A DNA stretch of 64,000 bases, taken from positions 3,168 to 67,167 of the forward strand of contig JAEYPQ010000023.1 of NCBI GenBank assembly GCA_023410645.1, in the 5' to 3' direction. A program made the translations under genes and the position numbers. The stretch is from Bacillota bacterium (lineage in GTDB: Bacteria > Bacillota > Clostridia > TANB77 > CAG-465). Below, piece after piece: positions 3,829-63,929 of the stretch. The stretch's first letter is position 1; each line of letters begins with the position of its first letter. The notes under the pieces were generated by a model that saw nothing but the letters and a program-made list of their open reading frames with translations, ran no database searches and was not told the origin of the DNA.

Positions 3829-4530
3829 ATGAAAAGAAAAATAATAAAAGTAATTGAAGAGAAATGTAATGGTTGTGGTTTATGCATAAATGCATGTCAT
3901 GAAGGTGCGTTACAATTAATAGATGGAAAAGCAAAGTTAGTAAGTGATACATATTGTGATGGATTAGGAGCTTGTTTACCTAATTGTCCTGTTGGAGCAC
4001 TAGAAATAATAGAGAGAGAAGCAGATGATTTTGATGAAATATCTGTTAATAAAAATATGAATTTAAATATGCATTTTAGTGGATGTCCTTCAACAAGAAT
4101 GAGGATGAATGTTAAAAACAATACAGATAATAATATTAATTACAAAAAAAAATTAAATGATAATATAGGATCAGAATTAAAACAATGGCCATGTCAAATA
4201 AGATTGGTTCCATATAACGCGCCATTTTTAAATAATTGTAATTTGTTAATTGCAGCTGATTGTACTGCTTTTGCATATCCAAATATACAAGAAGTAATGA
4301 AAGATAAAATCACACTTATTGGTTGCCCAAAATTGGATGATGTAGATTATACTAATAAGTTAACTGAAATCTTAAAATATAATAAAATTAACAGTGTAAC
4401 TGTAATACGTATGGAAGTTCCATGTTGTGGAGGTATAGCTTCTGCAGTTATAAGAGCTATAAAAGGCGCAAGCATTAATATGGACCTAAATGTAATAACA
4501 ATATCAGTAGGGGGTAATGTTATAGAATAA
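3829..4530 (+). CDS. 4Fe-4S dicluster (ferredoxin-type) domain protein
   Basis: Two ferredoxin motifs, CNGCGLCINAC and CDGLGACLPNCP, plus extra C-terminal Cys pairs. The RBS is AAGGAGGA. Confidence 0.7.
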   Translation: MKRKIIKVIEEKCNGCGLCINACHEGALQLIDGKAKLVSDTYCDGLGACLPNCPVGALEIIEREADDFDEISVNKNMNLNMHFSGCPSTRMRMNVKNNTDNNINYKKKLNDNIGSELKQWPCQIRLVPYNAPFLNNCNLLIAADCTAFAYPNIQEVMKDKITLIGCPKLDDVDYTNKLTEILKYNKINSVTVIRMEVPCCGGIASAVIRAIKGASINMDLNVITISVGGNVIE

Positions 4531-4574
4531 CTTATTTACTTTTATGTAGAAATACAAATTTATAAAAAATTAGA

Positions 4575-4615
4575 AGAATATATTTTACTTATAATGTGAA
4601 TATATTCTTTTTTTA
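4575..4615 (+). terminator. Intrinsic terminator after the ferredoxin-domain gene
   Basis: Perfect 10-bp inverted repeat AGAATATATT...AATATATTCT followed by a T7 run. Confidence 0.6.
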
Positions 4616-4648
4616 TGTACAATAATGCCTAAAACAAGTTAAAATATA

Positions 4649-4677
4649 TTGATTTTATATTTATTATTTGATATACT
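4649..4677 (+). promoter_or_regulatory. Putative sigma-A promoter of the NRPS operon
   Basis: TTGATT, a 17-nt spacer, then TATACT, about 50 nt upstream of the NRPS start. Confidence 0.4.
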
Positions 4678-4725
4678 TATAAATATCGAAATAGTAGTGA
4701 ATTTGTCAAAAAAAGAGGTAAAGAT

Positions 4726-7700
4726 ATGGATAAAAAATACAAATTAAGTTTTCCACAAGAAAATATATTATTGGTTGAAAAGTTAAATACTAGATCATCT
4801 GTAAATACTATAACAGGTACAATAAAAATTGATGATATATTTAACGAAGAATACTGTAAACTTGCAATAAATAAACTTCTTAAAAATAATGAATTATTAA
4901 GAATAAAAATTGTAGATGAAGTAAATGACTCATATCAAATAATTCAAGATTTTGAATATCAGGAAGTTGAGGTTTTAGATTTACAAAATTATTCAATTGA
5001 ACAAATAAATGAGACTTTATCTAAAATTGGAACTCAATCAATTAATTTAGAAAGTAAATTATTAATTGAGCCTAAGATTTTAAAATATTCAGATAATTGT
5101 GGCGCAATAGTTATAAAGATACATCATATCATAGCTGATGCATGGAGTCTTTATGAAATAGCAACAAAATTAAGGGAGTACTATATTGATGCTTTAAATA
5201 AAATCGAATCACGTGATAATTTCTCAGAAAGTTATTTTGATTATATAGAATCTGAGAAGGAATATTGTAATTCTGAAAAATATGAGAATGATAAAATGTT
5301 TTGGAATGAATATCTGAATAATATTGGTAATCCAGTAAATATAAAAGATAAATCGATAAAAACTTCTAATAAAGCAAAGAGATTTTCTGCATCATTAGAT
5401 TCTGAATTAAATGGATGTATAAATAATTATTGTAAGTCCAACGGAGTTTCAGTATATTCATTGTTTTTAGCTGCGATTTCAACATATATATATAGAGTTA
5501 GAAATGAAAAAGATATTATACTTGGTACACCATTACTTAACAGATCTAATTTTAAAGAAAAGAATATGTTAGGTATGTTTATATCTACTTTACCTATTAG
5601 AATTAAAATAGATGAAAATATGAAATTTATGGAACTAGTAAAAATGGTATCTAGTAATACTAAATCTATATTTAAACATCAAAAATATCCATATTATAAA
5701 ATATTGGAAAATATACACAGTACTACCAATATAAAAGATAATTTATTTGATATAGTTTTATCATTTCAAAATGGAAAAGTTAAATATCAGGATCAAAATT
5801 TCAACATAGATTGGTTGTTCTCTGGAGATATTCAAAATAGTTTAGAAATACATATATTAGATCCACAAAGTACAGGAATATTAAAAATTAATTATGATTA
5901 TTTGGTGGACTTATTTAGTGAAGTTGATATTATGTATTTACATAGAAGAATAATTAGTATAATAAAAACTGCAATAAACGATGAAAATTATAATTTAAAT
6001 GATATTAATATATTGGATAATTTAGAAGAAAAAATGATATATAGTATTAATGAAAATAATATAGATTATCCATCTGATAAGAGTATAGTACAATTATTTG
6101 AAGAACAAGTTGCAAAGAACCCTAATAATATAGCGCTTAAATTTCAAAATACTAGCATGACTTATTATGAATTAAATAAAGAATCAAATAAATTGGCAAA
6201 TTTTTTAAAGAATAAAATGGGAATATCAAGAAATGATGTTGTATCTATAATTATTAATAGAGGCTTTAATATGATAATAAGTATTCTTGGAATATTAAAG
6301 GCTGGAGCATCATATTTGCCGATAGAACCAACATTTCCAAAGGATAGAATAGATTACATTATTAAAGATAGTAATACTAAAATTATAATATGTTCTGATA
6401 ATGTAAAATTAGACTATAATAATATACCAAAAATAAACATAGATAATTATGAGTTTAGGAATACTGAAGACAATAATATTAATATTGTTAATGATATAGA
6501 AGACTCAATATATATAATGTATACTTCTGGAACAACTGGAAAACCCAAAGGTGTGTTAATAACTCACAAAAATATAACTAATCTAATATTTTCAGTTATA
6601 AATCATCAAAACTTATATGAATGTAATGTATGGGGAAATTTTTCAACATATTCTTTTGATATATTTATTTTAGAGGCTATAGTTCCACTTGCAATTGGAA
6701 AACAAGTTGTAATTTTAGATGAAACGGAACAAAAGACCCCAAAGAATATGAAAGAATGTATTATAAAAAATCAAATTGATGTTATGAATATGACACCAAC
6801 GAAATTTAAACTTTTACTTGAATATGATAAGGAAAATAATGCATTAATTGGATTAAAGAGATTGATGCTTGGAGGGGAAGTATTTCCAACTAATTATTAT
6901 GATAAAATAAGAAAAAGAACTAATGCAATTATTTATAATGGATATGGACCAACTGAGACTACAGTGTGGTGTACTTCAAAGATATTAAAAGATCCTAATG
7001 ATATAAATATAGGGGTACCGCTTCCAAATATAAAAGCATATATATTAGATGATAAAAATAAAATCTTACCACTTGGAATAACTGGTGAGTTATGTATTGG
7101 TGGAGATGGTGTCGGTAAAGGATATCATAATCGAGAAGAACTTACAAATCAAAGATTTATTGATACTGAATATGGAAAATTGTACAGAACTGGTGATTTG
7201 TGTTATTTGAATTACAACTGTGACATTAATTATGTGGGAAGAAAAGATTCACAAGTAAAAATACATGGATTAAGAATAGAGATTGAAGAAATAGAAAATG
7301 TAATTAAGTCTTTTGATGGTATAAGCCAAGTAGCTGTTATTGTAAATGAAAATCAAAACTTATGTGTATATTTTACTTCAACCCAAGAAATTATAATTGA
7401 AGATTTAAAATCATACTTGAAGTCTAAATTACCTAATTATATGGTTCCAACTATGTATATGAAAATTGATAAATTTTATATTACTGATATAGGAAAATTG
7501 GATAAAAAAAGATTACCAAAATTTGAATTGAATATTGATTACAATAAATACATAAAACCTGAAACAAAAACAGAATTAATATTGGAAAAAAACTTAAAGG
7601 AAATATTAAAAGTAGATAAGATAAGTATTGATAAAGATTTAATTGAATTAGGACTTGATTCTCTAGGAACTATAAAATTAATATCCCTACTAAATAATAT

Positions 7701-10700
7701 GGGAATTGATATTACTTATCAAGATATTTTCAATAATTCTACTATTCATAGAATTGGTAAATTAATTGATGAAAATAAAAAAGTAAGTCATATAACCAAA
7801 GCTATTGAAAATAAGATTAATGCTCCTATTACTCCTGCTCAAAAGGGAATATTCATAAATTCATCAATGACTGAAAATAAAATGCTATATAATGTTCCTT
7901 TTGAAATAAAGTTTTCAAATAAAATTGATATAGAAAAATTGAAAAAGTCAATAGAGTCAGCTATATTAAAAAATAAGTCATTATTTACAAAATTTAAAAT
8001 TGAAAATGATGAAATACATCAATACTTAGACTATGATAAAAATTATAGGGTTGTCGAGCATAATGTAACTTATGATGAGTATTTACATACAAAAAATATA
8101 TATGATAAGAGTTTTGAAATATTAGAAGACAGATTATTTGATTTTAATATATATACTACTGAAAGAGCTATATATGCAATAGCAAATTTCCATCATATAA
8201 TATTTGATGGTACATCAATATACATTTTTTTAAATGACATCATAAATAGTTATAATGGATCTAAAATCAATGTAGATAAATGTGAATTAATCGAGGATTT
8301 AAATACAGAGGTTAGTGAAATTAAATATAATACTGCAAAAAAATACTTTCTTGATGAATTTAGTGACGAATTACCAGTTAATTCATTACCACTTGATATG
8401 CCAAGATCAAAATTTAGATCGTTTAATGGTGATAAAGTTAAATTAATTGTTGATGAGGATATTGTTGAAAAATTAAATATTTATTCTAGAAATAATAAAG
8501 TAACTATGAATAGTATATTTTTATCATTATTTAATTTTACATTATCAAAGTACATGTATAATGAAGATATAATAATAGGAATTGCAGCAGATTCAAGGAG
8601 TTCAAAAAGACAGTTTAATTCTACGGGGATGTATGTATCAACTTTACCTTTTAGAACAAAAATAAATTTTGAAGATAAATGTTTAGAATATATAAAAAGT
8701 ATTCAGAATAAATTAATATCCACTTTAGATAATATTTCATATAGTTATGATGACCTTATAAAGGAACTAAATATACCAAGGGACTCTGCAAGAAATCCAT
8801 TGTTTGATGTAATGTTTGTGTATCAAAATTCTGGAATACCAGAAGTTACCTTAGAAAATGAAACTGTTGAAATATCACCAATTTATTATAATACTTCAAA
8901 ATTTGATTTAACTTGCGAAATACTTCCTAATGATAATATAATTGAAATAAATATTGAATATTGTAGAGATTTATTTTTTAGAGAAACAATAGAAAGATTT
9001 TGTGAAAATTACTTAAACTCAATTAGATGTATAATAAATAATGAAAAATTATTATTAGAAGATATAGATATTATTTCTGATTATGAAAAAAATAAAATCT
9101 TAAACGAGTTCAATAATTCTAGTGTAAAGTATGATGATAAACTAAATATAGTAGAGATATTTGAAAACCAGGTAAAGATAAATCCAAACTCTATTGCAGT
9201 AGTATCTGAGAATAATAGTTTAACTTATACTGAACTTAATGAAAAATCAAATATTGTAGCGCATAATTTAATAAAAAATGGTGTTAAAAAAGGTGACATG
9301 ATTTGCATAATGGTAGATAAATCATTAGAGGTAATGGTAGGAATACTTGGAATACTAAAAGCTGGAGCTGTGTATGTACCAATTGAAATTGATTGTCCAC
9401 CATCAAGAATTAAATATATAATTGAGGATACAAAATCAAAATATATATTAACATCTAATAAAAATAAAATTGATTCTAGTCAATGTACATTAATAGATAT
9501 AACAATAGATAAAAGTGAAATATTTAAGGATGGCAATAAGCATAATTTAGCAATAAGCATAAATTCTAACGATAATGCATATGTCATGTATACTTCTGGT
9601 ACAACAGGTAAGCCAAAAGGCGTAATTATTACTCATAAGAATGTAGTTAGTTTAATTCAAAATACCAATTACATAAAATTAGAAAAAGATGACAGAATAC
9701 TTCAAACAGGATCTTTAGCTTTTGATGCAACTACATTTGAATATTACTCTGCACTATTTAATTCACTACCTCTTTACTTTATGAAGAAATCCAATTTACT
9801 TGATTTAGAGAAATTTGAAGATTTTGTTATTAAGAATAAAATTACTGTAATATTTTTAACTACTCAATTATTTAATCAGATAGTAGAGTATAATCCTTTA
9901 GTATTTTCAAATGTTAGAGTTATACTTACTGGTGGTGAAATACATTCAATAAAACATTTAAATGTTGTTCTTCAAAAATGCAAAAATTTAAATTTAAGTA
10001 ATGTATATGGACCTACTGAAAACACTACGTTTTCTACTTATTATCCTATAAAAGATAAAGTGAATAAAAATGTACCAATTGGTAAACCAATTGCTAATAA
10101 AACATGTTATATTGTTGATAAATGTAATAAGCTATGTCCAATAAATGTACCAGGTGAATTAGTAGTTGGCGGCGATGGTGTTGCAAATGGATATTTAAAC
10201 AAGCCAGAAGTCACAAAGGATAAATTTATTAAAAATATATTCTCTAATGACGGTAATATATTATATAGGACAGGAGATTTATCTAGGTATTATAGTGATG
10301 GAAATATAGATTTTATTGGAAGAATTGACACACAAATAAAGATTAGAGGATTTAGAATAGAACCTGATGAAATTAGCCATAAAATGTTAGAAAATAAAAA
10401 TATAAAAGATGCAGTTATAATTTTAGAAAAAATAAAAAATAATAAAGTATTAGTTGCATATTACACTTCAGATGAAATTATTGAAGAAGAGTATTTATCT
10501 AAAGAATTAAAAAAATATTTTAATAATTATATGATACCATCTTATTTTATAAAAGTAGATAAGATTCCTATGAATTCCAATGGTAAAGTAAATAAAAGTG
10601 AATTAAATATTATTTTTAAAAAATATTTAATAAAAAGAAATAAATCTAAGAAAAATACTAGTTTATCAGGTATATACTTGGATATATATAAACTTTTCAA

Positions 10701-28893: not shown

Positions 28894-30302
28894 ATGAAAA
28901 AAGGTATAAGTTTAATTGTTTTAGTAATAACAATAATAGTAATAATAATACTTGCTGGTGCAATAATTTTAAATTTAACAAATAATAATCCAATAGATAC
29001 AGCTAATAAATCAGTATTCCAAAATGATGTAAAAAGTTTTCAAGAAGAACTTACACTTAGAGTTTTAAAAGAAAAAACTGATATTAATAATGAAAGAGAA
29101 AAGATTACAACAACTGACTATGATGAAATAAGAGGATACATACCAAGTTTTAAGGAAAAATATAGGGATAAATTGTACATTTTTGAAGATGAAGTTGTTT
29201 ATTCAAATAATGTAGATGATAAAGAAAAGGATTGGCTAAAGGCAATAAATATTAAATCAATAGTTGAAAAAGGTACTGTTATTAAACCAATAACTACAGC
29301 AACTGTATTTACTAAAGGTACTGATAAACAAGTATCAGACTTTTTTACTATTATTGGTACAGAACAGGTTTCATATAAAGTAAATGGAAATGAAATAAAC
29401 AATTTGAATGAATTAGATGTTGGTGAAAATAAAATTATTTGTAGTGATATTACTAACACAGTTAGTGCTAGTGTAAACTTAAATATTATTGATAAAGAAT
29501 ATGCATTTTCATATACTGGAGATTATCAAATATATGAAGTAAAATATGATGGCATATATAAGTTAGAATGTTGGGGAGCAAGCGGTGGTGCAAGTAGAAC
29601 TGACAATAAAGGAGGTTATACATCTGGTAATATTGGTTTATTAAAGGGACAAATATTATATATTTATGTAGGTGAAGAAGGAAATGCTAATGTAGGAAAT
29701 GCAGGTGGACTTGCATCATACAACGGTGGTGGTGCTGGCGGTAATGGAAGTTCTGGATATGGCGGAAGTTATTCAGGTGGTGGCGCTACAGATATTAGAC
29801 TCGTACAAGGATTATGGAACAATACAGATAGCTTAGCATCAAGAATTATGGTTGCAGGAGCCCGGTGGAGGATCTGGTAATGGATCTGTATCAACTTCTG
29901 GATATGGCGGTGGATTAGTAGGTGGAAATGCAAGAAGTACTGGTGGTGGTGTATCATTAGGCGGAACTCAAACAACTGGATTTGCACTTGGAATAGGTCA
30001 AGTAGGAAAAACTAAATCTTCATATGCCGGTGGTGGTGCAGAAGGAAATGCAGGAGGAGGAGGCCGGATATTATGGCGGATATGCTTTTCAAGGAACTGG
30101 AACTAATTCTTGTTCCGGAGGTGCTGGTGGATCATCATATGTATCTGGAATGAGTGGATGTACAACATACAATAATTATGTATTTAATAATGGGATTACT
30201 ATAGCTGGTAATGCATTGATGCCAAATCCAAACGGTGGTGCCCAAGTAACTGGAAATTCTGGAAATGGTGTTGCAAAGATAACTATATTAAGTTTAGATT
30301 AA
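28894..30302 (+). pseudogene. Pilin-like secreted protein with a C-terminal ALK-type glycine-rich domain, disrupted by two +1 frameshifts (single-C insertions)
   Basis: Three consecutive ORFs in frames 1, 2 and 3 (28894-29880, 29852-30106, 30024-30302) give one continuous Gly-rich protein if one C is removed at GCCCGG (about 29860) and one at GGCCGG (about 30071). The N-terminus MKKGISLIVLVITIIVIIILAGA resembles a prepilin but lacks Glu+5. A CWGASGG motif is present. Confidence 0.6.
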
Positions 30303-49599: not shown

Positions 49600-50964
49600 C
49601 TATTTTTTAAAATAATCATTTTTTGTTACTTGTTTGCTTCTTGCAACTGCAAGTGAGTTAGCAGGAACATCTTCAGTTATAACGGAACCAGCACCAACAA
49701 TTGAATTTTCTTCTATTGTTACTGGTGCAAGAAGAGCACTATTACATCCAATAAAGGCACCATCTTTTATTACAGTCCTATTTTTTTCCCATTTAGTATT
49801 CATGTTAGCAGTTATAACTCCACATGCAATTTCAACATTTTTTCCAATATCTGCATCTCCAATATATATGTGATGAGGTACTTTTGTACCAGTTCCAACA
49901 TTTACATTTTTAGTTTCAACGAAACTTCCTACTTTACAATTTTCACTAATATTTGATTTTGGTCTTAGGTGAGCAAATGGCCCAATTTTAGAGTTACTTT
50001 GTATAACGCTACTATCTACTTTACTTGTTTCTATAACAACATTATCACCGATTATAGAAGAGATAATATGTGAATTAGGTCCAATAATACAATTTTCCCC
50101 TATAACAGTTTCACCTTGTATATTTGTTCCAGGATAGATGATTGTATCTTTACCAATTTTTGCATCTAAGCTTATATATGTATTGTCAGGATCAATTAAT
50201 GTAACTCCATTATTCATGTGTTCTCTTCTTGTTTTGTTAAGTAAAGTACAAGTTGCAATAGATAATTCTTCTCTTGAATTAATACCTTGGAACTCAGAAA
50301 TATCAGGTATAGTATACACACCAAAATTATATCCCATTTCTTTTATATGATATGGAATATCAGTAATATAGTATTCTTTTTGTGCATTATTGTTATTAAG
50401 TTTACCTAAAGACTTTTTAAGCAACCCACCTTTAAAGCAGTAAACACCAATATTTACTTCATCTACTTTTTCTTCTTCTTCAGTGCAATCTTTCTTTTCC
50501 ACGATTTTATTTAAGTTTCCAAATTCATCACGAATTATTCTACCAAGTGATCCTGCTTCATCAACTATTGCAGATAAAACTACACCACCATAATTTCCTT
50601 GTTCACAAAAGGAAATTAATGATTTTATAGTTTGTGAAGAGATAAGAGGTTGATCTGCATTTATTACAAAAACAAGATCCTCATCTTTTATATATTCTTC
50701 AGCTTGCATTGTTGCATGACCAGTTCCAAGTTGTTCAGCCTGAAATACACATTTTAAGTTTTTTCTTGATTTTAAATGCTCCTCAACAACTTCAGCCTTG
50801 TGACCAACAATTACAAAGGTTTCTTTAATATTTGCATCTTCACATGCATCACATACATAATCTATGATACATCTATCATAAATTTTATGTAGTACTTTTG
50901 GAAGTTCAGATTTCATTCTAGTTCCTTTACCACCTGCAAGTATAATTGCTTTAATATTAGGCAT
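49600..50964 (-). CDS. glmU: Bifunctional UDP-N-acetylglucosamine pyrophosphorylase / glucosamine-1-phosphate N-acetyltransferase
   Basis: The N-terminus reads MPNIKAIILAGGKGTRM. The C-terminal half carries left-handed beta-helix hexapeptide repeats. Confidence 0.9.
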   Translation of the reverse strand: MPNIKAIILAGGKGTRMKSELPKVLHKIYDRCIIDYVCDACEDANIKETFVIVGHKAEVVEEHLKSRKNLKCVFQAEQLGTGHATMQAEEYIKDEDLVFVINADQPLISSQTIKSLISFCEQGNYGGVVLSAIVDEAGSLGRIIRDEFGNLNKIVEKKDCTEEEEKVDEVNIGVYCFKGGLLKKSLGKLNNNNAQKEYYITDIPYHIKEMGYNFGVYTIPDISEFQGINSREELSIATCTLLNKTRREHMNNGVTLIDPDNTYISLDAKIGKDTIIYPGTNIQGETVIGENCIIGPNSHIISSIIGDNVVIETSKVDSSVIQSNSKIGPFAHLRPKSNISENCKVGSFVETKNVNVGTGTKVPHHIYIGDADIGKNVEIACGVITANMNTKWEKNRTVIKDGAFIGCNSALLAPVTIEENSIVGAGSVITEDVPANSLAVARSKQVTKNDYFKK

Positions 50965-51095
50965 TTTATATCACACTCCTTAATTTAATATATACTATGC
51001 GAAAATTATAAAATAATTTACGGATTTATTTTACCATAAAATATTAATATTGTAAACTAATAAGAAAAATATCACTTAAATTTCACAAATATAAA

Positions 51096-51135
51096 GTCGA
51101 AAATAGGAGATAAATATGTATTATATTTATCTCCT
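51096..51135 (-). terminator. Intrinsic terminator of rmuC
   Basis: AGGAGATAAATA-tgtatta-TATTTATCTCCT. Confidence 0.5.
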
Positions 51136-51149
51136 ATAAAGCTTAAATA

Positions 51150-52421
51150 CTAGACTACATCTAGGTTATCATCTTCACTTAAAAGTAAAAATTCAGTTTC
51201 ATCTGACGGTATTGGTAATGCCTCGACATTTTTTAATTTTCTTTCAATAGTCCTTGTTTTTTTAGTTGCTTGTTCCATTGTTGAAGAAATTTCAAGTAAT
51301 TTTTTATTTGTTTTATCTAATATATCACCAAATTTCATAAATTCAGATTTAACTATACCAAGTAATTGCCAAACTTCACTAGTTCTTTTTTCAATAGCAA
51401 GAGTTTTAAATCCCATTTGTAAACTGTTAAGTAATGCTACAAATGTAGTAGGACCAGATACTACAATCCTATATTTTTGAGATATAAATTCACAAAGGCC
51501 GGTATTTTTTAATACTTCACAATATAGACTTTCAGTTGGTAAAAACATTATACCAAAATCTGTAGTGTAAGGTGATTCTATATATTTATCATGAATATCT
51601 TTAGCAAAAGATTTAATTGAATTTTCTAGTTTTTTTCTAGATTCTTGAATTGCAACTGTATCTGCTAAGTCTTCTGCATCAACAAGTCTAGAATAATCTT
51701 CAATCGGAAATTTTGAATCAACTGGTAACCAGACAAATTCATTATCATTTCTACCAGGAAGTTTAATTGCAAATTCTACTAAATCATTTGATTTTGGCTT
51801 TGTTTTTACATTTTGTTCATATTGATCGTTAGTTAAGAATTGTTCTAATATATTTCCAAGCTGTATCTCACCCCAGAAACCTCTAGATTTTACATTTGTA
51901 AATACTTTTTTTAAATCACCAACACCTTGTGCAAGTGTTTGCATTTCACCTAAACCTTTATATACAGATTCGAGTCTATCATTTACAACTTTAAAAGATT
52001 CACCAAGTCTTTGTTCTAGAGTATTATGCAATTTTTCATCAACTGTAACTCTCATTTTTTCAATTTTTTCTGCATTATCCTTTTGAATTTCAGTTAGTTT
52101 TCCTTCAACACTCATACGTATAATCTCAAGCTTTTCATCTATATTTTTACGTGTGTTTTCAAGTTTTGTTTCATTTAAATTAGTTAGATTAGCAAGTTGC
52201 ATTTGTTGAGTATTTGCATTTTCATTTATTTTTGTTCCAATATTTCTTGTAAGTTCTTCACGTGTTTGCATTAGCATAGTTGAAAGTTCTTTTCTTACAG
52301 AATTAAATTCATCAATAAATTCTTTTGAGTTTTTTTGCTTATTATTAAAGTATATTAATAAAATTATTGTAACAATAAGTAAAACAATTGTTACAATAAA
52401 TAGTAGTATTGTTATATCCAT
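51150..52421 (-). CDS. rmuC: DNA recombination protein RmuC
   Basis: N-terminal TM segment, a long coiled coil and a C-terminal RmuC domain. Confidence 0.7.
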   Translation of the reverse strand: MDITILLFIVTIVLLIVTIILLIYFNNKQKNSKEFIDEFNSVRKELSTMLMQTREELTRNIGTKINENANTQQMQLANLTNLNETKLENTRKNIDEKLEIIRMSVEGKLTEIQKDNAEKIEKMRVTVDEKLHNTLEQRLGESFKVVNDRLESVYKGLGEMQTLAQGVGDLKKVFTNVKSRGFWGEIQLGNILEQFLTNDQYEQNVKTKPKSNDLVEFAIKLPGRNDNEFVWLPVDSKFPIEDYSRLVDAEDLADTVAIQESRKKLENSIKSFAKDIHDKYIESPYTTDFGIMFLPTESLYCEVLKNTGLCEFISQKYRIVVSGPTTFVALLNSLQMGFKTLAIEKRTSEVWQLLGIVKSEFMKFGDILDKTNKKLLEISSTMEQATKKTRTIERKLKNVEALPIPSDETEFLLLSEDDNLDVV

Positions 52422-52499
52422 ATATTTACCTCTTTTCTAGATAAATATATTATATCAAATGAACTTTTGTTTGTCAATTAAATAAATAGTAAATATATT

Positions 52500-53672
52500 T
52501 TATAGTTTTGAAATATAAATTAGAGTATTTAAAATAGCAATTTTATTATTTTGAATTTCACTAAGTAAAGAATTAATATTAGCAAATGGACCAATCGGAT
52601 TACCATTTAATTTTGAAAGTTCTATGGTAAGAGCGTATACTTTTTTTAAACTAATTCTATAATAGTCCATTATTCCATATTTTATTTCTTCATCCATTAT
52701 TTCATATCCAGTATAGCTTGAATATTTTTTCATAACTCCAGCGTAGCATGCAATTTTATTATTTGTGGCATGATCTTTATCTGGAGAACTATATATTTCT
52801 CCACCAGTTGAATGAAATGAAAAAATAGCAATAAATTTTTCATCAGTAGTAGTATAATTTAAGTTATATAAACTATTTATATATTTATGAAGAGCAAGAT
52901 TTTCAGGGCATCTTGTATCAAATGGAAAATCTCCAGGATATCCAATAGGACTTGGCTTAGTTGTAGGTATATCATTATATCTTAGGTTTGCAAATTTCTT
53001 TTTGTTTGCAAGTTTTTTTGCTTGCTTAAAATTATGAATAGAATTTCTGTTTAAATCAATTCCCATGCCATTTGCTGACCAAGTTGGTAAAACAGAAGAA
53101 CTAAGATTACAATTTTTTAATATTCTTTCAACATTCTTTCTTAATTTTTCATCTGGAATATATTCAGTTGAAGTTTTAAGTACATTTCTATGTTCTTTAT
53201 TTGCTTTAATATTTTTCTTTGCTATTTCATCATCAAGATTATATTTTTTCAAATATTCTTTAGCTAATTCTTCAAATTCAGTAGTTGTAAGTCCCTTTAC
53301 ATTTTGACATACATTAGATGTTGATATGATATATCCTTCAGGATTTAAAATAGGTATTATGTGAAAGGTATAATATTTAGAATACTTTTCATATAACTCG
53401 TCATCATTTAATATAGTCAAAATAAACTCAAGTAAAAAATATGTAGTTACAATTTCACATCCATGTGTATCACCTAATAGTAGAACATGTCTTTTACCAT
53501 AGCCTATTTTATAACAGTCAATTGGATAGTTAAACGTAGTATATCCAATTGGACTTGCAGTGTCTCTAATAATCTTTGATTTATATTTTGGGTTATTTAT
53601 TATTGAATATAGATAATTACATACATTTTGATAAGATAGAACATAATCTGTTAAATAAATTTTATTTTTCAT
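52500..53672 (-). CDS. M14-family zinc carboxypeptidase (gamma-D-glutamyl-diamino-acid endopeptidase-like)
   Basis: Zn ligands GDTHGCE and FSFHSTGG. The protein is 390 aa. Confidence 0.65.
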   Translation of the reverse strand: MKNKIYLTDYVLSYQNVCNYLYSIINNPKYKSKIIRDTASPIGYTTFNYPIDCYKIGYGKRHVLLLGDTHGCEIVTTYFLLEFILTILNDDELYEKYSKYYTFHIIPILNPEGYIISTSNVCQNVKGLTTTEFEELAKEYLKKYNLDDEIAKKNIKANKEHRNVLKTSTEYIPDEKLRKNVERILKNCNLSSSVLPTWSANGMGIDLNRNSIHNFKQAKKLANKKKFANLRYNDIPTTKPSPIGYPGDFPFDTRCPENLALHKYINSLYNLNYTTTDEKFIAIFSFHSTGGEIYSSPDKDHATNNKIACYAGVMKKYSSYTGYEIMDEEIKYGIMDYYRISLKKVYALTIELSKLNGNPIGPFANINSLLSEIQNNKIAILNTLIYISKL

Positions 53673-53916: not shown

Positions 53917-56309
53917 GTTTAACTTTAACAAGAGTTGTATTTAAATTATTTTTGGGTTATATGTCTTTCCAAAATTTGATAGTTTAACTTTAACAAGAGT
54001 TGTATTTAAATTTCTAAGAATTTCTTTAATTCTTTTTCTTCTACACTGTTTAACTTTAACAAGAGTTGTATTTAAATGTTTCTTTGTTGAACATTAGCAT
54101 TTTAGGTTCTTCGTTTAACTTTAACAAGAGTTGTATTTAAATTACATTTCTTCTGTAATCATAATACCACTCCTTATTGTTTAACTTTAACAAGAGTTGT
54201 ATTTAAATAAGAATACAAGAGGCAGGAGGAAATTATATCGAAAGTTTAACTTTAACAAGAGTTGTATTTAAATTATGGAATTATCTAAACGTTTAACACA
54301 GTTAAGAGGTTTAACTTTAACAAGAGTTGTATTTAAATCGTAGCAGTAAATGAACTTATAGATGGTTATGAAGCGTTTAACTTTAACAAGAGTTGTATTT
54401 AAATATAAATAAAACTAAGCAAGCTGTTAAAAGACATATGTTTAACTTTAACAAGAGTTGTATTTAAATTTTGATTGTCTGTTTGACCATCTATGTACTC
54501 TATGTTTAACTTTAACAAGAGTTGTATTTAAATTTTTTTAATTTTTCAATTATTTTATTTCTATTTAAGTTTAACTTTAACAAGAGTTGTATTTAAATAG
54601 TAATTGAAATAGCTAAAAGAGAAAAGAAAGCAGAGTTTAACTTTAACAAGAGTTGTATTTAAATCAAAGAAGAAAAAATGAATTTATGTGGAAGTATGAG
54701 TTTAACTTTAACAAGAGTTGTATTTAAATTTGCTTTACCTGGAGCTTTATCTTGTGTATCAATTCCGTTTAACTTTAACAAGAGTTGTATTTAAATAATA
54801 TTTATGAGAATTGAAACAACTTATACATTTGGTTTAACTTTAACAAGAGTTGTATTTAAATAGCTCAGAAAGATATATGGTTGATATGCACATGATAGTT
54901 TAACTTTAACAAGAGTTGTATTTAAATCGATAAGAGATTTGACACAATTCCTTTTAACGAAGGTTTAACTTTAACAAGAGTTGTATTTAAATGTTTAATA
55001 AATAAGGAGTGGTATTATGATTACAGAAGTTTAACTTTAACAAGAGTTGTATTTAAATACTGGAAGAACGATGGAAGATGTAATGGAACGTATACGGTTT
55101 AACTTTAACAAGAGTTGTATTTAAATGTATTCAAGCCCTGATTATGGAGGTGTTAGTTATATGTTTAACTTTAACAAGAGTTGTATTTAAATTTTTGTAG
55201 TTTATTAACTCAAAAAAATTTTTAATAGTTTAACTTTAACAAGAGTTGTATTTAAATCCTCAATTCTTAACTATTGTAAGTTGGCAATAGTTAGTTTAAC
55301 TTTAACAAGAGTTGTATTTAAATATTATATTATTTTCTTGAGATTTATCCTTTGCTTTAGTTTAACTTTAACAAGAGTTGTATTTAAATTTATTACCTGA
55401 TGTTGGTGTACTATTCATACTATGTTTAACTTTAACAAGAGTTGTATTTAAATCTAGATTTATAATTGAGTCTATGATTTATATATTTAGTTTAACTTTA
55501 ACAAGAGTTGTATTTAAATATATTAAAAATAGAGTTAATCATTTTTACTTTTTTGTTTAACTTTAACAAGAGTTGTATTTAAATTGCGTATTCCATTTAA
55601 ATATTAATGTTCCATTTGGTTTAACTTTAACAAGAGTTGTATTTAAATTCAGGTTCAATTCCAACTCCTAAACTTAAATTACTGTTTAACTTTAACAAGA
55701 GTTGTATTTAAATAGTGCATTTGTTTGTTCATTTAATTTTCCTAAAGTAGTTTAACTTTAACAAGAGTTGTATTTAAATCCTAATTAATATTATACATTA
55801 ATTATTGTAAAAAAAGTTTAACTTTAACAAGAGTTGTATTTAAATAGATTTATGATGTTAATAAAGACCTCATTTGGTTCAGTTTAACTTTAACAAGAGT
55901 TGTATTTAAATCTTTCAGAAGATATAATTTGTTTTAATCTATTTGCTGTTTAACTTTAACAAGAGTTGTATTTAAATAGATAAAATGTTTCCTTATATCT
56001 TTTTAACTGTAATGTTTAACTTTAACAAGAGTTGTATTTAAATTTTAGCATGTGAAAGTGGGCTATTACAACATAGTTTAGTTTAACTTTAACAAGAGTT
56101 GTATTTAAATATTATATAAAATAGAAGACGATCTAGTAAATGGTATAGTTTAACTTTAACAAGAGTTGTATTTAAATTCGGAATATATATTATGACCACT
56201 TATGCTATCTACGTTTAACTTTAACAAAAGTTGTATTTAAATCCCATTTTTTTGCTATTATTTTTTGTTCTTTTTCAGAGTTTAACTTTACATAGGATGT
56301 TCTTAATTT
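53917..56309 (+). CRISPR. CRISPR array of about 37 repeats (36 spacers). The repeat is GTTTAACTTTAACAAGAGTTGTATTTAAAT (30 nt) and spacers are 34-38 nt. It is type I-B-like. The leader lies at the 53.7-53.9 kb end, and the repeats nearest the cas genes are degenerate.
   Basis: Identical 30-nt repeats recur every 65-67 nt. The penultimate repeat carries a G-to-A change (56213-56242). The last repeat is strongly degenerate (56280-56309). Confidence 0.97.
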
Positions 56310-56809: not shown

Positions 56810-57490
56810 ATGATATCATACAATATAAAAGTTGTATTAAATCCTATAGAGGATATTTACTATGAAAATACATATGAGTATTTATCTAACTTAATAGCAT
56901 TTGCTATGTCAAAAGATATAGAACTAAGAAATTTACATGAACAAAATACATATAAGTTATATTCATTTTGCTCATTATATCCTTATCAAAAGGATGGAAT
57001 TTATAAAGCGGGAAATATATTTCAATTTGATATTAGAACAATAGACTTTAAATTTGCTATAAAGATAAAACAATTATTTTCAGATGTACAAACTAAACAT
57101 TTTAAAGTTATAATGACTAATATTCAAACAAATGAACAAAGGAAAATTAATAAATTAATAACTCTTACGCCATCAATAATCACTACAACAGAAAAAGGCT
57201 ATAAAATTGATGACGATCTTGAACTAATAAAGAAAAGAATTATTGCTGGTGCTGAAAAAAAATATAAAAAAATATTTGATAAAGAAATTTCACATGATTT
57301 TATAAAAAGCATAAATAAAATTAATATTAAGCCTATAAAAATACCATACAAGTCAATTAGTTTCCTTGCAAATAAGTTTGAAATTTATATAAATCAAGAT
57401 GAAATATCACAAAATCTAGCATATATACTTTTTAGTACAGGAGTATTAGAAAAGAATTCATTAGGTTTTGGATTTTGTAGAGCAAACTAG
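56810..57490 (+). CDS. cas6: Cas6 (type I-B crRNA endoribonuclease)
   Basis: It is the first gene after the array. The C-terminal Gly-rich loop reads GVLEKNSLGFGFC. The protein is 226 aa. Confidence 0.7.
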   Translation: MISYNIKVVLNPIEDIYYENTYEYLSNLIAFAMSKDIELRNLHEQNTYKLYSFCSLYPYQKDGIYKAGNIFQFDIRTIDFKFAIKIKQLFSDVQTKHFKVIMTNIQTNEQRKINKLITLTPSIITTTEKGYKIDDDLELIKKRIIAGAEKKYKKIFDKEISHDFIKSINKINIKPIKIPYKSISFLANKFEIYINQDEISQNLAYILFSTGVLEKNSLGFGFCRAN

Positions 57491-57503
57491 AGGAGGTGTT
57501 ATA

Positions 57504-59300
57504 ATGATTAAAGAATTGTTAAATAATTTTGGAAAATATTTTGAAGATGAAAAAGTTGTACTTTCTTCATATAAGTTACAAAATGGAATCTATTATTTAT
57601 TCTCTAAAGACGGTAATTTAATTAATAAATTAGAAGTTTCTAAAGATACAGATAATTCAAGTAGCATATATCAATATTTTAAAGTTCGTGATTTTTATAG
57701 TAATTATATAGATTCAAATAAAGCAGTGGAAAATAGTGTTAAAGAGAAATACGATAATATTGAATATTCAATGAATAAGAAAATATGTAGTAATAATCAT
57801 TTAACACTATTTTTTAAAAATAAATTTGTTCAAGGAATAAGTGGTAAAATTAACGATAAGGATGCAGTTCCAGTACAGATATTTAAAAATGGAATTAATG
57901 AATATTTTAAATCGTTAGCTAATTTAGGTGAAAATAGCAAAAAAGGCGAAAAAGAGATAATTGAAAATATTACAAATATTATTTCAGAAAAAGAAGATAT
58001 ATATTCCAATAAGGATAATTTGCAGAATTCATTTGATAAAGTAATAGATGACCTAAAATCAAAAGAAGATATAAAGTACGATATATGGATTAAAGTATTT
58101 ACTGAAGCTTCAATAGAAGAGTATGAGAAAGCATCAAATAAATATATAGCATTGAAGCTATTTAATAAAAATGATAATAATGTTGTAATAAATAATGAAA
58201 TATATGGAATTAATAATTATAATTTTGGACTTAATTCAAAGAAACCATTTTTAGAATTAAAATCCACTCCATATAAAATTGGTCTAATAGGCTCAGATGA
58301 AATAAGAAAAACAAGAAATTTATACACATGGTTACTAAAAAATTGTTCTGTAAAAAATTATACACTTATACCAGTCGATTTTGATTTTAAAACAGATTTA
58401 TATGAAAAAAGAGAAATAGATAATAAGTCAGTATATCTTATGAGAGTTATAAATGATAATGGCAATGCTAAAGTAGAAGATTTCGAGATAATACCTAGGT
58501 ACAGTACTAAGATAAGAAGATTTGAGTGCGATAATTATATAAATAATAAATTAAATTTAGATAATATATATATAAATACAGAATTTATTAATGAATTAGA
58601 GTCTTTTGTTAGTGAAATTTGGTTTTCAAAATATTTAATACAATCATATTACAATTTTAAAGATAGTGTATCAAAAGCAAAAATACAAGAATGGAAGAAA
58701 AATGTTTTAAAACGATATTCTAAAATATTTAGAGAATTATTTCTAAAGGAAGATCCTACTTTATTTAAACAAAACTTAGATAAAATTGCAAGTGAAATAA
58801 CTATATGTATGTTAAAAGATGAAATATCTAAAAAACAATATTTTAATGCATCAAAATCTATGTGTTTATGGATAGCACTAGATTCATATTTTCAAGATAA
58901 GGAGATGAATTTGAATATGAAAATTAATAATACTATTGAAAAAGCTAAAGAAATAGCAAAAAATTCTGGTACCATAAATGATGATAAATTATACTATTTC
59001 CTTGTTGGTCAAGTTACTTATTATTTAGTGAGCTTAAGTAGAGCATCAAGTTTAAAACAAGATATAATAGAACCAATTATTAAATCAAATAATATTTTGA
59101 AACTTAAATCATCATTACAATTTTTACATAATAAATATAAACATGAAATCTATTTGAAAAATGAGAAGTTTAATAATATTTTTTCACAAATATTATTAAA
59201 TGAACCTGATGAAAGTGTAAAAGAAAATACAGATATGATACTTTCTGGTATTCTATCAAAAAATATTTTTTTTGAATCAATTAAAGAGGAGGAAAATTAA
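57504..59300 (+). CDS. cas8b: Cas8b (type I-B large subunit)
   Basis: About 600 aa protein between cas6 and cas7. RBS AGAGGAGGTG precedes the ATG at 57504. Confidence 0.65.
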   Translation: MIKELLNNFGKYFEDEKVVLSSYKLQNGIYYLFSKDGNLINKLEVSKDTDNSSSIYQYFKVRDFYSNYIDSNKAVENSVKEKYDNIEYSMNKKICSNNHLTLFFKNKFVQGISGKINDKDAVPVQIFKNGINEYFKSLANLGENSKKGEKEIIENITNIISEKEDIYSNKDNLQNSFDKVIDDLKSKEDIKYDIWIKVFTEASIEEYEKASNKYIALKLFNKNDNNVVINNEIYGINNYNFGLNSKKPFLELKSTPYKIGLIGSDEIRKTRNLYTWLLKNCSVKNYTLIPVDFDFKTDLYEKREIDNKSVYLMRVINDNGNAKVEDFEIIPRYSTKIRRFECDNYINNKLNLDNIYINTEFINELESFVSEIWFSKYLIQSYYNFKDSVSKAKIQEWKKNVLKRYSKIFRELFLKEDPTLFKQNLDKIASEITICMLKDEISKKQYFNASKSMCLWIALDSYFQDKEMNLNMKINNTIEKAKEIAKNSGTINDDKLYYFLVGQVTYYLVSLSRASSLKQDIIEPIIKSNNILKLKSSLQFLHNKYKHEIYLKNEKFNNIFSQILLNEPDESVKENTDMILSGILSKNIFFESIKEEEN

Positions 59301-59302
59301 TT

Positions 59303-60229
59303 ATGGAAGAAATGAAACAAAGAGTATATGGAGTTATTGGAATTAAAAGTAAAATGGCTAATTGGAATGCTGATTTTACTGGAATGCCTAAAACTACATC
59401 AAATAATGATATATATGGTAGTGATAAGGCATTTAAATATCCTATTAAAAAAATGTGGGAAAATGATCCTAATAATAAGGTATTATACGTTAAATCATAT
59501 AAAAAAGAAAAAGAAAATGTTCAGGCCAGAAATTTGAGTGAAAGATATAATTATATATTTGGAAAAAGTCTAAAAGATATCAAAAATAAAGATGAAGTAA
59601 TACTTGATTTATTTAGCGCAATTGATGTATTAAATTTTGGTGCTACTTTTGCAGAGGAAAAAAATAATATTAGTATAACTGGAGCCGTTCAAATAGGACA
59701 AGGATATAATAAATATGATGGTACAAATATTGAAATAATTGATATTTTATCACCTTTTAGGGACTCAACTAAAGATGATGCAAATAATAGCTCTATTGGT
59801 ACTAAAATAGTATCTGATGAAGCACATTATATGTATCCTTTTGCAGTTAATCCTTATAACTATAATATATATAAAGAATTACTAGGTAATAAATTTGTAG
59901 GTTATACAAGGGAAGCATATAATCAATTAAAAAAAGGATGTCTAATAGCTGCGACAGCATATAATACTAATAGCAAATTAGGGTGCGAAAATGAGTTTGC
60001 ATTATTTGTAGAATGCAAAGAAAATAGTAAATTATACCTTCCGAATTTAGATGAATACGTATTTTTTAGGAAAAATAATGGTTCAAAAGATATTATAGAT
60101 ATATCGAAAATATCAGAAATGTTATCGGAAGTAAAAAATGAAATTGAAAAAGTAGAAATATACTATAATAAATATACTATAGAAATATTAGGAGCAAAAG
60201 AAGATTATATAATAAAAGAACTATTTTAG
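59303..60229 (+). CDS. cas7: Cas7 (Csh2/Cst2 family)
   Basis: The size (308 aa), the position and N-terminal similarity to I-B Cas7 (VYGVIGIKSKMANWNADF) all fit. Confidence 0.75.
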   Translation: MEEMKQRVYGVIGIKSKMANWNADFTGMPKTTSNNDIYGSDKAFKYPIKKMWENDPNNKVLYVKSYKKEKENVQARNLSERYNYIFGKSLKDIKNKDEVILDLFSAIDVLNFGATFAEEKNNISITGAVQIGQGYNKYDGTNIEIIDILSPFRDSTKDDANNSSIGTKIVSDEAHYMYPFAVNPYNYNIYKELLGNKFVGYTREAYNQLKKGCLIAATAYNTNSKLGCENEFALFVECKENSKLYLPNLDEYVFFRKNNGSKDIIDISKISEMLSEVKNEIEKVEIYYNKYTIEILGAKEDYIIKELF

Positions 60230-60238
60230 GAGGAGTAA

Positions 60239-61006
60239 ATGAAGGAAGTTATAAAATTTAACCTTAAAGGTATAAGTGGTATATTTAAAAAATCTGATAG
60301 TAATACTACATATTTTACATATAATAATATTCATAAAATTGCTTTACTTGGAATAATAGGATCAATAATCGGTGAAAATGGTTATAACTATAATAGTTTA
60401 TTTAAGGACAAGCAAAATAAATTACCTGATTTTTATAATTCATTAAAAAACTTAAAAGTTGGTATTAAACCGAACGCGAATAATATATTTACAAAAAAAA
60501 TACAATCTTTCAATAATAGTGTTGGATATGCCTCAAAAGAAGATGGAAATAATTTAATTGTATCAGAACAATGGATTGAAAACCCATCATGGGATATATA
60601 TATTTTGAAAGATGATAGTCCACAGTATAAAAAGTTAAAGGAGTATCTTATTGATAAAAAATGTGAATATATACCATATATAGGTAAAAATGATCATTTT
60701 GCAAATATAAATGATGTGAAAATTTTAGATGCTAGTATACTTAATAATGTAATAAAAATAGATAGCATTTTTAAAGAAATAGATTATACCATAGTTGATG
60801 ACATGGTGGATATAATTTATGGATTTGATACAAAAAAAGAAATAAAATATGAATATAAAGAGGTATTACCAATAAGTCTTGATAGCAAAATTGGGTATAC
60901 TGATTTCAAAGAATTTGTGTATACAAATAATGAGATAAATATTAATAATAAGTCTGATATAAACGATATATATGAGATAGATAAAGATAATATTTATTTC
61001 TTTTAG
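60239..61006 (+). CDS. cas5: Cas5 (I-B)
   Basis: 255 aa protein between cas7 and cas3. Confidence 0.7.
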   Translation: MKEVIKFNLKGISGIFKKSDSNTTYFTYNNIHKIALLGIIGSIIGENGYNYNSLFKDKQNKLPDFYNSLKNLKVGIKPNANNIFTKKIQSFNNSVGYASKEDGNNLIVSEQWIENPSWDIYILKDDSPQYKKLKEYLIDKKCEYIPYIGKNDHFANINDVKILDASILNNVIKIDSIFKEIDYTIVDDMVDIIYGFDTKKEIKYEYKEVLPISLDSKIGYTDFKEFVYTNNEININNKSDINDIYEIDKDNIYFF

Positions 61007-61017
61007 GTGAGGTAAAA

Positions 61018-63441: not shown

Positions 63442-63929
63442 ATATAAATGGTACTATGGTAAATTATTATTTTCATTGTAAAAGACAATGTTATTTATTT
63501 GCAAATAGAATAAATTTAGAAGATAATTCGGAAGATGTTAGAATAGGCAGGATAATACATGAAATAAAGGCTGAAACAGAAAACAATTCTGAAATTAAAA
63601 TTGAAAATATATCTGTTGATAAAATAACAAGTAAATATGTGATAGAATTAAAAAAAAGTGATGCTGATATCAATGCGGCCAAAATGCAAGTGTTATTTTA
63701 TTTAGATAAATTAAGGTCTAAAGGAATAATCAGAGAAGGTAAATTAAAGTTTTCAGAAAAAAACACTAATGAAATATCCGAGATTATAAGTTTAAGTGAT
63801 GAAAATCAAAAGAAATTAGAAGAATGTAAAAAATCTATATATGAATTAATTACATCTGATATAGCTCCAGAGCCAAGCAAAATAAAAGGATGTAAAAAAT
63901 GCGCCTATTATGAATATTGCTATATATAG
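63438..63929 (+). CDS. cas4: Cas4 (RecB-like nuclease with an Fe-S cluster)
   Basis: Cys ligands: N-terminal C...C and C-terminal CKKCAYYEYC. The gene overlaps the cas3 stop. Confidence 0.8.
   Translation: MNINGTMVNYYFHCKRQCYLFANRINLEDNSEDVRIGRIIHEIKAETENNSEIKIENISVDKITSKYVIELKKSDADINAAKMQVLFYLDKLRSKGIIREGKLKFSEKNTNEISEIISLSDENQKKLEECKKSIYELITSDIAPEPSKIKGCKKCAYYEYCYI

Follow-up and report, generated by a model that had tools for sequence, protein, structure and literature searches.

Organization of the NRPS-kinase locus

We analyzed a stretch of 64,000 nucleotides (hereafter "the window") of contig JAEYPQ010000023.1 from a Clostridia bacterium of the phylum Bacillota (assembly GCA_023410645.1), in which a gene for a nonribosomal peptide synthetase (NRPS) is followed by a gene for a sensor histidine kinase with a seven-transmembrane (7TM) domain. 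The NRPS is encoded by an open reading frame (ORF) of 2471 amino acids on the forward strand, which starts with ATG and is located at positions 4726-12141. Its stop codon (12139-12141) is separated by a gap of 4 nt from the ATG of the kinase gene at position 12146, and the ribosome-binding site of the kinase gene lies within the 3' codons of the NRPS gene, which implies that the two genes are translationally coupled. An AT-rich inverted repeat downstream of the kinase gene is a probable bidirectional terminator that would mark the end of the operon, although it was not called by a consensus scan. With the ribosome-binding site of the kinase inside the NRPS gene and a hairpin after the kinase gene, the transcription unit consists of the NRPS and the kinase, and the locus at 4726-13915 is thus a two-gene operon. 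The features of the locus are listed below (C, condensation domain; A, adenylation domain; T, carrier domain; R, thioester reductase domain).

4531-4725, AT-rich intergenic stretch of 196 bp, presumed site of the NRPS promoter
4714-4718, + strand, ribosome-binding site AGAGG, 7 nt ahead of the NRPS ATG, read in the sequence
4726-12141, + strand, NRPS gene, C(starter)-A1-T1-C2-A2-T2-R, from Pfam and motif positions
4726-6045, + strand, C1, N-terminal (starter-position) condensation domain, HHIIADA at residues 133-139
6097-7497, + strand, A1 adenylation domain, Pfam residues 458-801 plus 855-924
7573-7770, + strand, T1 carrier domain, phosphopantetheine-attachment Ser in LGLDSL at residues 975-980
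7822-9102, + strand, C2, LCL-type condensation domain, HHIIFDG at residues 1156-1162, Pfam residues 1033-1459
9163-10605, + strand, A2 adenylation domain, from Pfam, specificity code and motifs
10684-10863, + strand, T2 carrier domain, Ser in GGDSL at residues 2010-2014, Pfam residues 1987-2046
10999-12138, + strand, terminal R domain, Pfam NAD_binding_4 at residues 2095-2346
12132-12137, + strand, ribosome-binding site GGAGGA of the kinase gene, within the last NRPS codons
12146-13915, + strand, sensor histidine kinase of 589 amino acids, Pfam HisKA_7TM, HisKA and HATPase_c, AlphaFold2 model
12146-12841, + strand, 7TM sensor domain with a predicted fold similar to G-protein-coupled receptors (GPCRs)
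13920-13954, no strand, AT-rich inverted repeat where the convergent kinase and nth genes meet, read in the sequence

A promoter scan was uninformative, with 121 sites found against 119 expected in this AT-rich DNA (24% GC). No riboswitch or leader was identified near the operon with Rfam, for which the only matches in the window were CRISPR repeats.

Domain architecture and predicted product of the NRPS

The original prediction described a C-A-T-C-A-T-R synthetase of 2471 amino acids in which a reductase takes the place of a thioesterase. This agrees with the order of the Pfam domains, which include two Condensation, two AMP-binding (with AMP-binding_C) and two PP-binding domains followed by NAD_binding_4/Epimerase at residues 2092-2387, and all core motifs are intact. 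The protein thus shows the ordered C, A and T domains, the intact core motifs and the R domain of the short-chain dehydrogenase/reductase type that characterize type I modular NRPSs. The attachment Ser is present in both T1 and T2, and the R domain carries the TGxxGxxG nucleotide-binding motif and the Thr/Tyr/Lys triad, with TGVTGFLG at residue 2096, ISTLSV at residue 2224 and YAYTK at residue 2265. It aligns over its full length to PDB entry 6vtj (207 bits) and to the R domain of AusA (4f6c, 122 bits), and the positions of YxxxK and Ser/Thr in YAYTK and ISTLSV match the active site of the AusA R domain in the alignment. Neither of the two sequence defects that the original prediction named as refuting it, an inactive R domain and a missing carrier-domain Ser, is seen in the protein. 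Reductive release is the expected mode of off-loading.

The specificity of the A domains had not been reliably readable by eye in the original prediction. We extracted the 10-residue codes by aligning the A domains of the family to GrsA-PheA, and the reference sequence itself returned the canonical code DAWTIAAICK. The codes obtained were DILNMGGVWK for A1 and DAFFLGVTFK for A2. The strings DIFILE and DATTFE quoted in the original prediction belong to the A4 motifs FDIFILE and FDATTFE. Among the published Stachelhaus codes, the A1 code is nearest to the Gly codes (DILQLGxIWK), but has Gly at position 322. In the same comparison, the A2 code is identical at 8 of 10 positions to the code for Ile (DAFFYGITFK) and at 7 of 10 positions to that for Val (DAFWIGGTFK), and the predicted substrate of A2 is accordingly a branched aliphatic residue similar to Ile or Val.

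C1 aligned with 66 bits to the starter C domain structures of SrfAA (8f7h) and RzmA (7c1k), as compared to 33 bits for C2 against 8f7h. The best match in PDB to C2 was the LCL domain of TycC (165 bits). The motif HHxxxD(A/S)W in C1 represents the family consensus, and an N-terminal C domain is kept across the family. The codes of the A domains in combination with a C domain in the starter position suggest that the product would most likely be an N-acyl-(small)-(Ile/Val) aldehyde. An N-acyl dipeptide aldehyde or alcohol is very probable as a product class. Cyclization to a pyrazinone, the alternative in the original prediction, appears less likely, since the N-terminal C domain is intact, conserved in the family and relatively similar to starter domains; acylation of the amine, which would prevent cyclization, is therefore expected. 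N-acyl tails are said to stabilize dipeptide aldehydes from the gut in a passage of PMC8210680 that cites Guo 2017.

Features of the sensor histidine kinase

The kinase consists of a 7TM domain (residues 1 to about 230), a PAS-like domain (about 233-345), a HisKA domain with H375 (GGVAHDINTPIS) and a HATPase_c domain (474-582). The fold of the 7TM domain is predicted to be GPCR-like in the structural model. An invariant motif, TNDxHHLFYxxYS, is located at residues 113-125 in a loop of the 7TM domain. Clusters of positive residues at 24-29 (RKKRKN) and 161-164 (KKSG) would, according to the positive-inside rule, place the N-terminus on the outside, in which case the loop with the invariant motif should be extracytoplasmic. 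The H-box sequence is AHDINTPIS. Among the NCBIfam models, the transmitter is nearest to kinases of the AtoS/ZraS type, with scores far below any equivalog cut-off, and the match to KinD was likewise far under its cut-off.

Co-occurrence of the NRPS and the kinase

We compared the neighborhoods of NRPS homologs with 34-69% sequence identity to the window NRPS, and found that the gene directly downstream codes for a HisKA_7TM kinase in all eight contexts. Seven of these (L001, L002, L003, L004, L006, L009 and L010; 35-69% identity) otherwise differ in their neighbors, which include RloB/AAA_21, an M14 peptidase, uvrA and HtrA, among others. In the eighth (L092), the kinase directly follows a three-module homolog, (C-A-T)3-R, with 34% identity. 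A more distant NRPS (L093, 29% identity), which starts with an A domain and terminates with an R domain, is accompanied by methyltransferases and a transporter of the major facilitator superfamily instead of a kinase.

The reverse test, in which metagenomes were scanned with two peptide patterns specific to the kinase, yielded 80 loci with kinases that are 35-77% identical to the window kinase, many of which are labelled as human gut. An NRPS R domain was identified upstream on the same strand in 72 of the 72 loci with usable upstream sequence; in the other eight, the sequence ends within 300 bp of the kinase start. The R domain ends 10-170 bp ahead of the kinase in 70 of the 72 loci, and in the other two the best R domain match ends 533 bp upstream while the match to the whole NRPS extends to about 22 bp before the kinase. 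The kinase is thus not a chance neighbor of the NRPS, and the locus shows the adjacency and co-conservation of a pherotype-type locus in both directions. The previous description of a single-gene, self-contained biosynthetic gene cluster (BGC), in which the kinase gene had been overlooked, does not hold, since the 7TM kinase gene is translationally coupled to the NRPS gene, co-conserved in every homolog context and exchanged together with it (see below).

The kinases are better conserved than their NRPSs. In the seven relatives, the kinases are 76, 68, 66, 62, 63, 56 and 37% identical to the window kinase, as compared to 69, 50, 42, 42, 42, 41 and 35% for the corresponding NRPSs. The window NRPS is at most 50% identical to every homolog found except for one in a metagenome-assembled genome (MAG; L001, 69%), and a scan of species-representative genomes recovered two MAG relatives only. 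In L001, the closest relative, the NRPS frame is split into two ORFs (7639-9240 and 9272-15031), which reflects either a pseudogene or an assembly error. Relatives occur in metagenomes of human gut, Hadza and marmot samples, and the window DNA has a GC content of about 24%.

The family ranges from one to three modules, and almost every complete member starts with a C domain. Single-module variants, C-A-T-R plus kinase, were observed in L013, L017-L024, L035 and L039. The L013 gene resembles a two-module gene of the L003 type from which residues 939-1990 or thereabouts have been deleted, a natural module deletion, and it retains the same A1 code as the window (DILNMGGVWK). The searchable literature contained no description of a pairing of an NRPS with a histidine kinase or of mosaic alleles; the primary papers on the family lie outside that search.

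Two clades with different linked regulators

The loci fall into two clades. Clade A, to which the window belongs, has kinases that are at least 47% identical to that of the window (14 representatives including the window), and its kinase is an orphan. Clade B is the sister clade, with kinases of 35-39% identity and 24 representatives that are mostly from the human gut. In 19 of the 24 clade B representatives, the kinase is followed by a response regulator with a receiver domain (REC) and an HD_5 domain of the HD-GYP type, and at least two of the five representatives that lack the regulator have less than 600 bp of downstream sequence. In 20 of the 24, the NRPS gene is preceded by a divergent gene for an HtrA-like Trypsin_2-PDZ protease. 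Examples of positions of such neighbors in clade B loci are:

L010, 3939-4799, - strand
L025, 12024-13088, + strand

An M14 peptidase was found upstream of the cassette in 6 of the 14 clade A representatives. We considered the M14 peptidase, HtrA and the housekeeping gene Tex as cluster members and rejected them, as they follow the synteny of the clades; the presence of an HtrA-like protease beside a peptide-aldehyde synthetase in clade B may be only clade synteny.

Mosaic alleles of the NRPS and the kinase sensor domain

We compared sequence distances within clade B, with the flanking gene Tex as the phylogenetic yardstick. The distances for the kinase core, the response regulator, Tex and the NRPS C1 domain co-vary (r = 0.77-0.90), and the kinase core tracks the response regulator (r = 0.90) and Tex (r = 0.79). 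The distances for the 7TM sensor domain show no co-variation with those of its own kinase core (r = 0.17). They instead track the NRPS R domain (r = 0.63 in clade B, and about 0.62-0.63 over the comparisons made) and, to a lesser extent, the A2 code (r = 0.42).

The nucleotide identity profiles of allele pairs are consistent with this pattern. L037 and L056 are about 100% identical in C1, 54-67% identical in A1 (NRPS residues 430-900, approximately), 88-98% identical in T1-C2, 45-68% identical over A2-T2-R and kinase residues 1 to about 230, and again 98-100% identical in the PAS-kinase part and the response regulator. Within this profile, A1 represents a clean natural A-domain swap. Three other pairs have profiles of the same shape, and the pair L031 and L037 shows the inverse, with the same central allele in different backgrounds. 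In clade A, the genomic flanks of L006 and L012 are unrelated (about 42% identity), but the ends of their cassettes are nearly the same, with 97-100% identity for NRPS residues 1-460 and 91-99% for the kinase from residue 170 to the end. Identity drops to about 55% in the center, and the 3' breakpoint falls within the distal part of the 7TM domain, shortly ahead of the PAS domain. The profiles of these two pairs indicate that the product-specifying part of the NRPS is exchanged together with the sensor domain of the kinase. The two-gene cassette appears to be a unit of horizontal transfer or relocation. A polymorphic block of the pherotype kind is present in L037/L056 and L006/L012, all of them loci related to that of the window, for which no close allele pair is available.

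We also considered co-variation of the A-domain codes and the sensor domain, which was apparent in raw and partial Mantel tests (r = 0.56 and 0.50) and vanished when the divergence of the A-core and the R domain was included. It was therefore not used as an indication of residue-level co-evolution of ligand and receptor, and the argument was based on the mosaic nucleotide profiles.

Comparison with known systems

The window NRPS is best regarded as an addition to a known family of peptide-aldehyde NRPSs from the gut. Gut-commensal Clostridia reportedly contain a family of NRPSs that produce dipeptide aldehydes and pyrazinones (Donia 2014; Guo et al. 2017, Cell), and Ruminococcus bromii is reported to produce an N-acyl dipeptide aldehyde, ruminopeptin, from the rup cluster (Schneider and Balskus, 2018). 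The C-A-T-C-A-T-R architecture, reductive release, the small size of the cluster and the anaerobic Firmicutes hosts are shared with the gut family, relatives of the window NRPS are abundant in metagenomes of the human gut, and an N-terminal C domain implies an N-acyl tail. The kinship suggested in the original prediction is supported at the level of architecture and cluster size.

The best NCBIfam model for the window NRPS is AusA (NF047350), which synthesizes aureusimine (phevalin/tyrvalin) in Staphylococcus aureus and likewise has two modules and a C-terminal R domain, which is homologous to that of the window NRPS (4f6c). Assignment to the AusA equivalog was rejected, since the score was 1527 bits against a cut-off of 2500 and the window NRPS has an additional N-terminal C domain. 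AusA has the architecture A-T-C-A-T-R without a starter C domain, which leaves a free amine and leads to a pyrazinone, and its partner AusB is a phosphopantetheinyl transferase (PPTase) rather than a kinase. The closest solved structure to the R domain, 6vtj, belongs with 6vtz to a group of archaeal and other carrier-R modules, and the C-A-T-R logic of MxcG in myxochelin synthesis resembles the single-module members of the family (the window NRPS scores 804 with the MxcG model of NCBIfam, under the cut-off of 2300). Substrates and biological roles of both differ from those of the window NRPS.

In the agr (AgrBDCA) and comQXPA pherotype loci for quorum sensing in Firmicutes, polymorphism extends from the part that specifies the signal into the sensor domain of the kinase, and the transmitter is conserved. 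The cassette [C-A-T]n-R plus 7TM kinase is probably a variant of this known signal-receptor logic, with a gene for the putative signal located beside a polytopic membrane kinase and, in relatives of the window, a polymorphic block and a conserved transmitter. It differs in that the proposed signal is a nonribosomal lipopeptide aldehyde and not a ribosomal peptide, in the GPCR-like 7TM sensor and in the lack of an adjacent regulator in the clade of the window. The gene order in the sister clade, with a synthase, a membrane kinase and a REC-HD-GYP regulator, is also similar to that of the Rpf system for the diffusible signal factor (DSF) in Xanthomonas (RpfF-RpfC-RpfG), in which a DSF synthase and a sensor are combined with a phosphodiesterase for cyclic di-GMP (c-di-GMP). 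The proteins themselves are unrelated, with a crotonase in the place of an NRPS and a hybrid kinase, RpfC, in the place of the non-hybrid 7TM kinase, and the HD-GYP regulator of this layout is absent beside the window cassette.

A signal-receptor interpretation and its alternatives

Taken together, the architecture, the intact motifs, the operon structure, the strict co-occurrence and the mosaic co-inheritance lead us to slightly favor the interpretation that the kinase is the cognate receptor of the NRPS product. The cassette is conserved in anaerobic Clostridia, with many loci from the human gut among them, and most likely represents a signal synthase and its cognate receptor. According to this model, the starter-position C domain would acylate a small first residue (code DILNMGGVWK), C2 would join the acylated residue to a branched aliphatic residue (code DAFFLGVTFK), and reduction by the NAD(P)H-dependent R domain would free the N-acyl dipeptide, with an aldehyde as the most likely C-terminal group. 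After secretion, this lipopeptide aldehyde or one of its derivatives would be detected by the 7TM domain of the kinase, which would pass the signal on by phosphotransfer. We infer that the output differs between the clades, with a relay to the adjacent REC-HD-GYP regulator in the sister clade, implying c-di-GMP turnover, and a relay to an unlinked partner regulator in the clade of the window.

Several observations weigh against this interpretation. No receiver domain was found across the window and no response regulator adjoins the kinase, so that the adjacent regulator of a classical two-component system is missing from the window, while the sister clade has REC-HD_5. The R and 7TM domains are physically adjacent, and a recombination tract over their junction would transfer both without selection, which makes hitchhiking possible. 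No residual link between code and sensor was seen in a multiple regression on distance matrices after the divergence of the NRPS had been included, and in the pair L025/L028 the A2 code differs at five positions although the sensors diverge by only 19%. With regard to the product, the call of a Gly-like or small substrate for A1 is a weak one, made with low confidence, and the best PDB matches to C1 are non-starter C domains (79-95 bits), so that C1 is relatively starter-like but not decisively a starter domain. The aldehyde may also be over-reduced to the alcohol, and the sequence does not separate the two.

The cassette could alternatively be a BGC for a protease inhibitor with a dedicated regulator or sentinel, in which the input to the kinase is not the product acting as a signal but a cue from the environment or stress caused by aldehydes or in the envelope, and in which the kinase adjusts physiology or production accordingly. 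We regard this as unlikely, albeit worth serious consideration, given that cathepsin-inhibiting peptide aldehydes are made by members of the gut NRPS family (PMC12282076; PMC12327764). The invariant motif in the sensor loop, kept despite very different peptide codes, is consistent with such a role, as are the proteases upstream of the cassette (HtrA-like in 20/24 clade B and M14 in 6/14 clade A representatives), although the latter carry little weight since they follow clade synteny in the same manner as Tex. Against this reading, the cassette is without a DNA-binding regulator, the only linked regulator being REC-HD-GYP, and the exchange of the sensor together with the A2-T2-R block is hard to explain if the cue is unrelated to the product. 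It is even less probable that the NRPS is a self-contained single-gene BGC for a dipeptide aldehyde or pyrazinone and the kinase an unrelated neighbor. This would account for the lack of other biosynthetic genes nearby, and such NRPSs can work alone if a PPTase is provided from elsewhere, as for AusA with AusB. We nevertheless consider it highly improbable, because the kinase is adjacent in all 72 and all eight loci, with unrelated flanks and one to three modules, its ribosome-binding site overlaps the NRPS gene, the cassette is found as a unit at an unrelated genomic site, and a free amine, which a pyrazinone would require, is not expected with an N-terminal C domain that is intact and conserved.

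A sub-case of the signal-receptor interpretation is a link to sporulation, in which the orphan kinase phosphorylates Spo0A directly and the lipopeptide aldehyde serves as a cue for density or differentiation, or as a protease inhibitor that times sporulation. The organism encodes SpoIVA and the clade A kinases are orphans; orphan kinases of Clostridium that act on Spo0A are documented, as is an influence of secondary metabolites on sporulation (PMC8102284; also Steiner 2011, as cited in the literature). Both the H-box, AHDINTPIS, and the top-scoring NCBIfam models point to the AtoS/ZraS type, the match to KinD is far under the cut-off, and the sister clade uses an HD-GYP regulator and not Spo0A, which makes this sub-case improbable.

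Genomic neighborhood and other features of the window

We searched the window with Pfam on ORFs of at least 100 amino acids and several shorter ones near the NRPS, and with a six-frame motif scan. These searches gave no match in the window to a PPTase, a thioesterase, MbtH or a tailoring enzyme, in line with the previous statement that MbtH, thioesterase and tailoring genes are missing. The genes upstream of the cassette are nrdD, nrdG, nrdR, a divergent Crp/Fnr regulator and a Fer4-domain protein of 233 amino acids, and the kinase gene is followed by a convergent nth gene and the gene for pyruvate kinase. Housekeeping genes and a CRISPR-Cas locus are located in the remainder of the window, as is SpoIVA, which indicates a spore-forming organism. 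The Fer4-domain protein and the Crp/Fnr regulator were considered as cluster members and rejected; they are conserved in the syntenic MAG L001 only and absent in the other contexts, and are therefore treated as neighbors. In the Fer4-domain protein (3829-4530, + strand), a 2x[4Fe-4S] ferredoxin domain at the N-terminus is followed by a C-terminal two-thirds without assignment.

The genes for GlmU, RmuC and an M14 peptidase are located directly upstream of the NRPS in L003 (144-5861), and the same genes are found about 40 kb downstream of the NRPS in the window (49600-53672, - strand). This difference in position indicates that the region upstream of the cassette has been rearranged between the relatives. 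The downstream side, with the kinase, nth and pyruvate kinase, is syntenic between the window and L003.

An ORF of 94 amino acids after nrdD (1748-2032, + strand) repeats the C-terminal glycyl-radical segment of NrdD (1550-1702) almost verbatim; the repeated segment is FERIRRITGYLVGTVDRFNNGKRAEE(R/H)DRVKH. By analogy with GrcA/YfiD for pyruvate formate-lyase, its product might supply the anaerobic ribonucleotide reductase with a "spare-part" glycyl-radical protein; the ORF might also be a mere duplication remnant. The CRISPR array (53917-56242, - strand) contains 36 identical repeats of 30 nt (Rfam CRISPR-DR3) and is located beside genes for Cas6, Cas7, Cas3-helicase and Cas4 and two ORFs without assignment (56810-63929, + strand), in a layout that looks like type I-B. 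A protein of 328 amino acids (28894-29880, + strand) matches the glycine-rich domain of ALK/LTK (PF12810), which is unusual for a Clostridia chromosome.

Implications for the gut peptide-aldehyde NRPS family

A family of 47 NRPS BGCs is present in gut commensals and widespread in stool samples of the Human Microbiome Project, and a subset of these has been shown to produce cathepsin-inhibiting peptide aldehydes (PMC12282076; PMC12327764). Work on these clusters has mainly concerned the inhibition of proteases, host cathepsins among them. The sensor kinase partner offers a testable alternative, in that the products could be strain-specific bacterial signals for which a GPCR-like two-component system would be the receptor. 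The natural allele pairs L037/L056 and L006/L012 provide ready-made material for specificity swaps, and the natural swaps of A domains and modules, together with the deletion that converts C-A-T-C-A-T-R to C-A-T-R, can serve as templates for NRPS engineering. For heterologous expression of the window NRPS, the kinase should be included or considered, and N-acyl-X-Ile/Val aldehydes or alcohols are to be expected rather than pyrazinones.

More generally, we tentatively suggest, as a possibility that we hold to fall short of even probability, that the [C-A-T]1-3-R NRPSs of gut Clostridia are not primarily factories for inhibitors of host proteases. They may instead constitute the synthase half of a mobile, pherotype-like signaling cassette for lipopeptide aldehydes, in which a GPCR-like 7TM kinase would be the receptor, and modules and sensor would be exchanged as allelic blocks. 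In one clade the cassette would act on c-di-GMP turnover via REC-HD-GYP, and in the clade of the window it would act through a regulator encoded elsewhere, possibly Spo0A.

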